From a virus (lineage: Duplodnaviria > Heunggongvirae > Uroviricota > Caudoviricetes), in IMG/VR virus record IMGVR_UViG_2713896769_000015: a DNA stretch of 17,127 nucleotides; one strand, given 5' to 3'. The translations under genes were made by a program, and so were the position numbers. The notes below the pieces were generated by a model. It was not told where the DNA came from. It did not search any database and saw nothing but the letters and a program-made list of their open reading frames with translations. The stretch's first letter is position 1. Each line of letters opens with the position of its first letter. Shown piece after piece: positions 2,558 to 5,437 of this stretch.

Positions 2558-2638
2558 TCACATCTCGTATGTAATGGAATAAGTCAAATCAGCAGAACTC
2601 CATAACGCCATATCGTCATCACGACGATACTCATAGCC
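2558..2638 (-). pseudogene. U: 3' remnant of tail terminator gene U, separated from its 5' part by the IS insertion
   Basis: Minus-strand translation from 2638 down to the stop at 2558-2560 reads [26 protein letters not shown], matching the lambda gpU C-terminus (...[26 protein letters not shown]) as I recall it. Confidence 0.8.
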
Positions 2639-2710
2639 TGTAGTGGCACACTAAATTTGGCCACCTGATGAAAGGTGATATTCTCACCACAACACAAAAC
2701 AGGTGACTTA

Positions 2711-2982
2711 ATGAACAAGAAAACCAAACGAACCTTCACCCCTGAGTTCAGGCTGGAATGTGCACAGCTGATTGTTGATAAGGGCTACTCATATCGACAG
2801 GCCAGTGAAGCGATGAATGTCGGTTCAACCACGCTTGAGAGCTGGGTACGCCAGCTCAGGCGAGAGCGCCAGGGTATTACGCCCTCTGCCACACCCATTA
2901 CTCCAGACCAGCAACGTATCCGCGAGCTGGAAAAGCAAGTTCGCCGTCTGGAGGAACAAAATACGATATTAAAAAAGGCTAC
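2711..2982 (+). pseudogene. IS3-family transposase orfA (HTH DNA-binding part), interrupted by IS30; its last codons resume at 4206-4245
   Basis: SD aggtga at 2701-2706, ATG at 2711. [55 protein letters not shown]...[22 protein letters not shown] resembles IS911 OrfA. Slippery A AAA AAG at 2971-2977. With IS30 removed the frame continues ...[16 protein letters not shown]. The track ORF 2675-3088 reads on into the IS30 left end. Confidence 0.8.
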
Positions 2983-4203
2983 TGTAGATTCAATTGGTCA
3001 ACGCAACAGTTATGTGAAAACATGGGGTTGCGGAGGTTTTTTGAATGAGACGAACATTTACAGCAGAGGAAAAAGCCTCTGTTTTTGAACTATGGAAGAA
3101 CGGAACAGGCTTCAGTGAAATAGCGAATATCCTGGGTTCAAAACCCGGAACGATCTTCACTATGTTAAGGGATACTGGCGGCATAAAACCCCATGAGCGT
3201 AAGCGGGCTGTAGCTCACCTGACACTGTCTGAGCGCGAGGAGATACGAGCTGGTTTGTCAGCCAAAATGAGCATTCGTGCGATAGCTACTGCGCTGAATC
3301 GCAGTCCTTCGACGATCTCACGTGAAGTTCAGCGTAATCGGGGCAGACGCTATTACAAAGCTGTTGATGCTAATAACCGAGCCAACAGAATGGCGAAAAG
3401 GCCAAAACCGTGCTTACTGGATCAAAATTTACCATTGCGAAAGCTTGTTCTGGAAAAGCTGGAGATGAAATGGTCTCCAGAGCAAATATCAGGATGGTTA
3501 AGGCGAACAAAACCACGTCAAAAAACGCTGCGAATATCACCTGAGACAATTTATAAAACGCTGTACTTTCGTAGCCGTGAAGCGCTACACCACCTGAATA
3601 TACAGCATCTGCGACGGTCGCATAGCCTTCGCCATGGCAGGCGTCATACCCGCAAAGGCGAAAGAGGTACGATTAACATAGTGAACGGAACACCAATTCA
3701 CGAACGTTCCCGAAATATCGATAACAGACGCTCTCTGGGGCATTGGGAGGGCGATTTAGTCTCAGGTACAAAAAACTCTCATATAGCCACACTTGTAGAC
3801 CGAAAATCACGTTATACGATCATCCTCAGACTCAGGGGCAAAGATTCTGTCTCAGTAAATCAGGCTCTTACCGACAAATTCCTGAGTTTACCGTCAGAAC
3901 TCAGAAAATCACTGACATGGGACAGAGGAATGGAACTGGCCAGACATCTAGAATTTACTGTCAGCACCGGCGTTAAAGTTTACTTCTGCGATCCTCAGAG
4001 TCCTTGGCAGCGGGGAACAAATGAGAACACAAATGGGCTAATTCGGCAGTACTTTCCTAAAAAGACATGTCTTGCCCAATATACTCAACATGAACTAGAT
4101 CTGGTTGCTGCTCAGCTAAACAACAGACCGAGAAAGACACTGAAGTTCAAAACACCGAAAGAGATAATTGAAAGGGGTGTTGCATTGACAGATTGAATCT
4201 ACA
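2983..4203 (+). mobile_element. IS30, complete 1221-bp copy nested inside the IS3-family element
   Basis: Left end TGTAGATTCAATTGGTCAACGCAACAG at 2983 and right end ...GTTGCATTGACAGATTGAATCTACA at 4203 form the IS30 terminal inverted repeats. Flanked by a 2-bp direct repeat AC (2981-2982 and 4204-4205), the duplication size expected for IS30. Confidence 0.95.
3045..4196 (+). CDS. insI: IS30 transposase (DDE, 383 aa)
   Basis: 383 aa, [46 protein letters not shown]...[26 protein letters not shown]...; matches the IS30 transposase as I recall it. ATG is at nucleotide 63 of the element. Confidence 0.95.
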
Positions 4204-4205
4204 AC

Positions 4206-5111
4206 CGCGCTCTTAATGTCCGACTCGCTGAACGGTTCACGATAGCCGCCAGACTAAGTGACAGCCACACGGTTGTCAGCCTGTGTTCTGCTCTGGAAAT
4301 ACACCGCAGCAGTTACCGGTACTGGCGAAAACGACGCGATACGGTTAATCCGGCACGAGTCAGGTTGTGCAGCGAAATACGCCGGGCGTGGAACCAAAGT
4401 CGGGGCTCTGCGGGCGCGCGCACTCTGGCTGAAATGCTGACTCAAAACGGCGTCCCGATGAGCCGTTACCGTGCCGGACGTCTGATGAAATATCTGAACC
4501 TGAGCAGTTGTCAGCCCGGAAAACATCAGTATAAAAATGCCCGTCAGGAGCATACCAGCCTGCCGAATCTGCTTGAGCGTCAGTTCGCAGTACCGGAGCC
4601 AGACCGGGTATGGTGTGGAGATATTACGTATCTCTGGGCAGGAAATCGCTGGTGCTATCTGGCGGTTGTTATGGATCTTTTTGCCCGCAGGGTTATCGGC
4701 TGGAGTCTGTCAGCGCATGCCGATACCGCACTGATAAGCAGTGCCCTGCGGATGGCCTATGAGACGCGTGGCCAACCCCGGGATGTCGTGTTCCATAGCG
4801 ACCAGGGAAGCCAGTATACAGGCCTTAAATATCAACAACTTCTCTGGCGTTGCAGAATAAATCAAAGCGTCAGTCGGCGGGGAAACTGCTGGGATAACAG
4901 CCCCATGGAACGCTTCTTCCGCAGTCTGAAAACAGAATGGGTGCCAACGAATGGTTACGCAGGCAAGGACGAGGCCCGGCAGCAAATTAATGATTACATA
5001 TTGAACTACTACAACAGCGTCAGACCTCACCATTATAACGGTGGGCTGACGCCGGAAGAGTCAGAGAACAGATACCATTTTTACTGTAAAACCGTGGCCA
5101 ATATTACTTGA
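4206..5111 (+). CDS. IS3-family transposase orfB reading frame (DDE catalytic domain), now separated from orfA and its frameshift site by IS30
   Basis: Frame is open from 4206 to the TGA at 5109-5111 and is the -1 frame relative to orfA once IS30 is removed. Contains ...[33 protein letters not shown]...HSDQGSQYT...[20 protein letters not shown]..., the D, D, E region typical of IS3-family OrfB. The track entry 4365-5111 begins at an internal TTG. Confidence 0.8.
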
Positions 5112-5119
5112 CCACTACA

Positions 5120-5437
5120 GCCCTGCGTAACCATCGTGGTAATCAGGCCTGACAGTGCCGGGATCGCACTCATCGCCGGATAAATCCGGCTTTCCATCCA
5201 CGAATCCAGCTCTGAATCCGGCACCTGAGCAGGCAGGAAAACTTCAATATGCAGCTCCGCCTGCCAGGTATCGCTGTCCAGCGCTTCGCCCGTGTATTCA
5301 GCGCCGGTGAGATAAACAGCAATTGCCGGAAAATCCGCCTCATCAAAAACAGCGGGGCGACCATCAAACAGCGTCGCCCCGTGTTCATGCTGCTCGAGTG
5401 CATCCAGCACTGCAGCACGGATATCAGTATGTTTCAT
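5120..5437 (-). pseudogene. U: Tail terminator gene U (lambda gpU-like), 5' part truncated by the IS insertion
   Basis: MKHTDIRAAVLDALEQHEHGATLFDGRPAVFDEADFPAIAVYLTGAEYTGEALDSDTWQAELHIEVFLPAQVPDSELDSWMESRIYPAMSAIPALSGLITTMVTQG matches lambda gpU up to residue 106. The remaining 12 residues of track ORF 5081-5437 ([12 protein letters not shown]) are encoded by the IS right end. Confidence 0.85.

Follow-up and report, generated by a model that had tools for sequence, protein, structure and literature searches.

An IS3-family element, later entered by IS30, splits tail terminator gene U in the late module of a lambda-like prophage

We analyzed a 17,127-nt stretch of viral DNA (Duplodnaviria; Heunggongvirae; Uroviricota; Caudoviricetes; IMG/VR record IMGVR_UViG_2713896769_000015), here called the window, which holds the late (virion) module of a lambda-like Escherichia coli prophage on its minus strand. 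The tail terminator gene U of this prophage is separated after codon 106 by a 2,481-bp insert, and the 3' piece on the other side keeps the same orientation. Judged by its reading frames, the split gene is a pseudogene of the gpU family PF06141 and not a working member of it. We consider it highly probable that this allele, U with its inserted insertion sequences (U::IS), is a null allele produced by two successive transpositions, which leaves the prophage tail-defective when alone, with the genes from V to H still transcribed and rescue by sibling prophages possible. The pieces of the gene and the duplicated target site are these:

5120-5437, minus strand: U 5' fragment with the first 106 codons of the gene (MKHT...TMVTQG), 106/106 residues identical to intact U.
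5081-5437, minus strand: U'-IS fusion open reading frame (ORF) of 118 aa, made of 106 U codons, 12 codons encoded by the insertion sequence (IS) and a stop.
2558-2638, minus strand: U 3' fragment, a duplicated Gly codon, then 25 unique U codons with the stop; agrees with the C-terminus of lambda gpU.
2636-2638, no strand: left GCC copy of the 3-bp target-site duplication, seen in the sequence.
5120-5122, no strand: right GCC copy of the 3-bp target-site duplication, seen in the sequence; there is a single GCC at the empty site.

The initial annotation had described U as intact for its first 106 codons at 5120-5437, and translation reproduces these coordinates exactly. It had also placed the last 26 codons at 2558-2638; the coordinates and the frame are correct, but the first of these codons, GGC, is the complement of the duplicated GCC. 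Since this Gly codon is present twice, only 25 unique U codons and the stop lie on the V side. Excision of 2639-5122 yields a 396-nt ORF of 131 aa, all of whose residues (131/131) are identical to those of the intact U of Escherichia coli UTME-9. The agreement with the C-terminus of lambda gpU that had been claimed for the stitched product extends over the full length, as the rejoined protein aligns end to end with lambda gpU (PDB 1z1z, 3fz2) at an expectation value (E) of 3e-73 and covers positions 1-130 of the Pfam profile PF06141 (Phage_tail_U) with 205.6 bits at a cut-off of 25. The gene is located between Z and V, as in the lambda tail module, and its neighbours match the Pfam families Minor_tail_Z and Phage_TTP_12. 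In the window, the gpU domain is not covered by any single uninterrupted ORF. A chance match is excluded for the two fragments by their tblastn E-values (1e-69 and 5e-14) together with the terminal inverted repeats of the insert and the GCC direct repeat. The initial annotation allowed that its claim would fall if a second intact U existed in the same prophage; there is no second copy within the window and none in the whole sibling prophage of strain DEC9B.

The insert (2639-5119) had been regarded as a single 2.48-kb IS. It is indeed a transposable-element insertion, but two nested pairs of inverted repeats, an outer pair at 2639-2664/5094-5119 and an inner pair at 2983-3008/4178-4203, divide it into two nested elements, an IS3-family element and an IS30 that entered it later. 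Both run opposite to the phage late genes, and they are arranged as follows:

2639-2982, plus strand: outer element, left part, with the left inverted repeat (2639-2664), orfA, which starts at ATG 2711 or GTG 2675, and an A6G frameshift motif at 2971-2977.
2983-4203, plus strand: IS30, 1,221 bp with 26-nt inverted repeats, a 383-aa transposase (3045-4196) and an AC duplication (2981-2982, 4204-4205).
4206-5119, plus strand: outer element, right part, with orfB, whose DDE/rve transposase frame stops at 5109-5111, and the right inverted repeat at 5094-5119.

Deletion of IS30 and of one AC rebuilds an outer element of 1,258 bp that has the characters of the IS3 family. Its ends are 5'-TG...CA-3', with inverted repeats that begin TGTAGTGG and end CCACTACA; in the rebuilt form, a -1 frameshift at the A6G motif links orfA, with its HTH_Tnp_1 domain, to orfB, with its rve, rve_3 and HTH_21 domains; and a 3-bp target-site duplication, GCC, is found on both sides, with a single GCC at the empty site. 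The Prokaryotic Genome Annotation Pipeline (PGAP) labels an uninterrupted copy at the same U site with ‘programmed frameshift’. In the window, the outer element lacks an OrfAB transposase of its own: IS30 parts orfA from orfB and sits 5 nt beyond the frameshift motif, so OrfAB can no longer be made. The ends of the element are intact, and only mobilization in trans is conceivable. Uninterrupted copies that are 100% identical to the reconstruction are present at many other E. coli loci. Because PGAP gives this IS no specific name and IS911A of E. coli K-12 is only distantly related to it in DNA, we name it no more precisely than an IS3-family, IS911-like element. The same or closely related IS3-family elements were also seen in or beside the FI, FII, Z region of the tail/head-joining module in unrelated E. 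coli genomes, and these positions suggest that the module may be a repeated target of this group.

The inner element is 99.4% identical to K-12 IS30A over 1,279 nt. Its length of 1,221 bp, its 26-nt repeats and its 383-aa transposase, which contains HTH_38 and rve domains, are those of IS30, and PGAP names it ‘IS30-like element IS30 family transposase’. It is flanked by a 2-bp target-site duplication, AC, and a duplication of 2 bp is characteristic of IS30 (PMC9333248). The whole 2,481-bp composite occurs at an identity of at least 99.8% in many unrelated chromosomal and plasmid loci.

Three allele states of the locus were found among related genomes. An uninterrupted counterpart of the rejoined V'-U-Z' sequence, at least 99% identical to it, is present in 183 records, and the empty site in UTME-9 reads ...CTCATAGCCCTGCGT... 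with one GCC, just as the initial annotation would have it in relatives that lack the insert. U carrying the outer IS alone, with exactly the same junctions, is present in four complete genomes (OkiPb01717, CAU16175, PEC240 and AUSMDU00014361); the OkiPb01717 locus matches the reconstructed ‘U::outer IS’ at 99.7% in a gap-free alignment of 2,178 nt. Four other complete genomes (DEC9B, 7_33_46A, F2_407_2_2 and Z1323PEC0008) have the nested form, as the window does. The simplest history consistent with these alleles has two steps, in which the IS3-family element entered U first and IS30 then inserted in situ in one sublineage. That the nested composite came into U as one unit was considered too, but as the simplest reading it is rejected, since the outer IS by itself is found at identical junctions. 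A composite copy elsewhere may still have supplied the nested form by gene conversion.

The allele is widespread in public data. Public assemblies, a human gut metagenome among them, contain the exact 118-aa U'-IS fusion product in 199 index blocks, and IS30 was present in five and absent in five of the ten fusion-ORF loci inspected. Both pieces of U are marked as incomplete ‘gpU: phage tail terminator protein’ by RefSeq/PGAP in eight complete carrier genomes. Given these labels in sibling genomes, the split U is already on public record as a pseudogene, and it is an ordinary knock-out. The closest complete-genome matches to the window reach 98.4-99.3%, and ten assemblies that contain the exact fusion ORF all differ from the window; the best match in the phage collection covers 68% of the window at 94% identity, with no close full-length relative found there.

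What the loss of U would mean can be read from lambda. The protein gpU forms a hexameric ring between gpFII of the head and the gpV tube and caps the tube, and all of its 131 residues are ordered in one domain, a five-stranded sheet flanked by two helices (PMC10721106). Lambda without its tail terminator produces capsids and very long polytails (PMC11784142), and on the basis of this genetics the loss of U is expected to cause a defect in both tail termination and head joining. In the course of events that the sequences show, the 1,258-bp IS3-family (IS911-like) element entered a lambda-like, nleA/nleG effector-carrying prophage after U codon 106, duplicating GCC; later, in one sublineage that includes the window, IS30 entered 5 nt downstream of the A6G motif, duplicating AC and disabling the outer transposase. 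U can be expressed only as 106 native plus 12 foreign residues without the C-terminal 25, and the loss of these last 25 residues of a compact single domain would be expected to abolish its function. The prophage alone would have no cap for the tail tube and no surface for joining tail to head, and its induction would give DNA-filled heads and over-long inactive tails with no infectious virions. The genes V-G-T-H would still be transcribed by Q-antiterminated late transcription, V would be translated from its own ribosome-binding site (RBS), and co-resident lambdoid prophages could supply U in trans or repair U by recombination.

That the prophage is tail-defective on its own, which the initial annotation held to be probable, is well supported by the split gene together with the lambda terminator-loss phenotype (PMC11784142). 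The tailless heads that it expected under the electron microscope should be replaced by free filled heads accompanied by over-long tails. That the prophage is dead is not supported. Several points weigh against our reading as a whole. The non-functionality of the truncated U is something we infer; Q and pR' are outside the window, and Q antitermination is assumed from relatives; and the seven ranked complete carrier genomes each have 4-6 places that match the 5' part of U, that is, 3-5 extra U-like sequences. An AlphaFold model of the 118-aa product is of low confidence (predicted local distance difference test score 56.7), and we build no misfolding argument on it.

The ORF at 5120-5437 could in principle be a naturally short functional U, or the split could be an assembly artefact, and gene callers in public assemblies do count the 118-aa ORF among the genes, with a hit to Phage_tail_U. 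Yet the 25 lost codons are found in frame past the insert, target-site duplications lie at both flanks, the PF06141 profile spans 130 positions, and the same structure is seen in eight independently finished genomes and many draft assemblies. The in-frame codons, the empty site, the full-length match and the recurrence in many genomes refute this reading, which we regard as extremely improbable; the short variant named by the initial annotation as a way for its claim to fail is likewise ruled out. A different explanation keeps the split but takes transcriptional polarity as its main effect, with 2.5 kb of untranslated IS in the opposite orientation silencing V, G, G-T and H as well as the tail genes distal to them. 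The initial annotation had expected the insertion to be polar on V, G, G-T and H. The U frame ends 12 codons into the insert, which leaves about 2.4 kb of untranslated RNA before the U 3' fragment and V, a classic setting for Rho-dependent polarity, and one terminator-like hairpin is located on the late strand at 4553-4537. This hairpin is weak, however, with 6 pairs of which 3 are G-C, and the one site compares with 3.5 in shuffled sequence. Promoter-like sites were not found in the insert. Lambdoid late operons are transcribed by Q-modified polymerase, and Q suppresses polarity (PMC12360218); a Q-type antiterminator is encoded upstream in relatives, and V keeps its own GAGGA RBS 5 nt before its ATG. 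Because Q suppresses polarity and V has its own RBS, strong polarity on V-H is doubtful: judged by these signals it is unlikely, while some reduction in expression is possible. Polarity as the main effect of the insert appears improbable to us.

Another possibility is that the lesion is masked, such that U from co-resident lambdoid prophages completes the tails, or recombination restores U, and the effector genes still spread. The extra U-like places in each of the seven ranked carriers fit this possibility, and the eighth carrier, AUSMDU00014361, combines the split U of one prophage with an intact U in another, which has the accession of the rejoined gene (WP_000683071.1). Morphogenesis-defective lambdoid prophages of E. 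coli O157 Sakai are packaged and some are transferred, apparently through complementation by siblings (PMC2669165). Exchange with sibling prophages is also visible in the window, where a patch in V (1727-2473, the 3' two-thirds of the gene) differs from DEC9B by 53 nucleotides and 12 residues; outside this patch, positions 1-13,000 are nearly identical to DEC9B, with zero differences from 2501 to 7000. The patch sequence agrees at 99.6-99.8% with V from other lambdoid prophages of O26/O111-type genomes and looks like gene conversion from a sibling prophage; a match of this kind indicates that the prophage recombines with its siblings. On the other hand, the patch ends 166 bp from the insert, so that recombination came this close and left the insert unrepaired. 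The left end of the prophage, inspected in four carriers, lies at the same chromosomal site in all of them, a DUF1175 gene beside an alpha-2-macroglobulin gene, which fits vertical inheritance and not spread. Other carriers gained further lesions, as would be expected under relaxed selection, and one genome was checked for whether its extra U copies are intact. We regard masking as possible but somewhat doubtful. The initial annotation had also suggested that this single event made the prophage cryptic. U::IS is the only lesion common to the carriers, but 17 kb cannot decide the matter, and ‘cryptic’ does not follow, because the further U-like sequences in carrier genomes could complement the lesion. 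We hold to a null allele of U in a prophage that is probably tail-defective when alone.

Apart from U, the structural genes of the window are intact, as had been proposed. Read from the right, the window has the lysis genes, followed by Nu1, A, W, B, C, D, E, FI, FII, Z, U, V, G, T and the beginning of H. The 13 complete structural genes other than U (T, G, V, Z, FII, FI, E, D, C, B, W, A and Nu1) all equal their DEC9B counterparts in length and are free of internal stops, and the partial H has an open frame. Ten of the 13 are 100% identical to DEC9B, whereas D and Nu1 each have a single residue changed and V has 12. The nearest genes of the tail module are these:

1798-2550, minus strand: V, major tail tube gene, directly downstream of U; intact, 250 aa, Phage_TTP_12 and Big_2 domains; its GAGGA RBS overlaps the U stop.
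5434-6009, minus strand: Z, tail completion gene, directly upstream of U; intact, 191 aa, Minor_tail_Z.
913-1784, minus strand: G and T, tail assembly chaperone genes; conserved lambda-type GGGAAAG -1 slippery site at 1371-1377, giving an open G-T fusion frame of 290 aa.

The prophage of DEC9B, of about 50 kb, has no annotated phage-gene lesion besides U::IS. It contains int/xis, exo-bet-gam (exonuclease, Bet and Gam), a repressor, O/P, nin, Q, lysis, head, tail and tail fibre genes, together with nleG and nleA as cargo, and it resides in the DUF1175 gene near gyrA. Carriers elsewhere have lost more. OkiPb01717 has a stop in Z (4711-5286 of its locus), and CAU16175 has a shortened E and a stop in Q (23277-24161 and 34592-35215 of its locus). 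In Z1323PEC0008, J is truncated, Z carries ISEc22, C is frameshifted and O contains an IS (8653-10968, 20434-23471 and 25728-27232 of its locus). AUSMDU00014361 has lost the head module and has a frameshift in T. U::IS is the only lesion shared by all carriers, the further ones being lineage-specific, and by this pattern the carriers appear to form a stepwise decay series from one shared first lesion. Since U::IS is shared by all of them, the pattern fits the idea of U::IS as the first disabling event, for which the window alone would be insufficient.

The window itself switches modules toward its right end (about 14700-17127). To the left of about 14.7 kb it follows the DEC9B-type prophage; to the right it has a regulator of the Rha family (14726-15343) and, at 15493-16630, a lysis cassette of the type found in UTME-9 and Z1323PEC0008, where DEC9B has an iss/bor-rzpD module.

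Two more speculative ideas arise from these comparisons. U::IS could be an old, widely inherited grounding lesion in an nleA/nleG effector prophage whose other virion genes stay intact because they still matter, being kept by gene conversion or use among co-resident lambdoid prophages, in a shared pool of parts; the prophage would then be a complementation-dependent element and no decaying relic. We put this forward as a long shot. More speculative still, the truncated U, which retains the gpFII- and gpV-binding loops, might inhibit, in a dominant-negative way, the tails of lambdoid phages that are siblings or superinfect the cell.

The gpU family, the IS3-family element and IS30 are all textbook entities, and the finding is real, correctly placed and for the most part correctly read by the initial annotation, while being ordinary. 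Its value is practical: an effector-carrying prophage is recognized as probably unable to build complete tails alone, and the order of events is fixed, with the IS3-family element first and IS30 second. In addition, the 118-aa U'-IS ORF is called as a Phage_tail_U gene, and tools that estimate prophage completeness could score U or its module as intact. The split U raises no new question.

Knock-outs of morphogenesis genes by IS elements in lambdoid prophages of enterohaemorrhagic (EHEC) and enteropathogenic E. coli, and their rescue by sibling prophages, are well documented. Among known systems, lambda gpU (PDB 1z1z, 3fz2, 3fzb; PF06141) is the reference for the gene: the rejoined 131-aa protein aligns with it end to end (E 3e-73) and the order Z-U-V is the same, whereas the gene in the window is broken after codon 106 and only a truncated fusion product is possible. 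The closest parallel for the prophage as a whole is given by the defective prophages of EHEC O157 Sakai (Asadulghani et al. 2009, PMC2669165), where, as here, an effector-carrying lambdoid prophage in polylysogenic E. coli has lost one structural function to an IS, and the same genomes contain sibling prophages whose virion genes are nearly identical. The two cases differ in the gene hit (U here, nu1 for example in Sp4), in the elements (IS911-like and IS30 here, IS629 there) and in the host lineage, and the present case is known from sequence alone.

For the insert, the counterpart is IS911A::IS30A in the CP4-6 prophage of K-12 (insN/insI1; PMC9333248). There IS30 lies at the homologous position just past the ATATTAAAAAAGGCTAC frameshift region, in the same orientation and with the same AC duplication, as seen when the junctions in the window (2971-2985 and 4201-4215) are compared with those at the K-12 locus (2525-2545 and 3760-3803). 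The K-12 host element is a truncated, divergent IS911 relative with about 80% identity over the terminal 80 nt, while the outer element of the window keeps both ends and an intact 3-bp duplication. The same site and the same AC duplication in so divergent an element point to a preferred IS30 target, and the comparison suggests a hot spot in the frameshift region of IS911-group elements through which IS30 may repeatedly inactivate them; alternatively, the composite may have been mobilized in trans.

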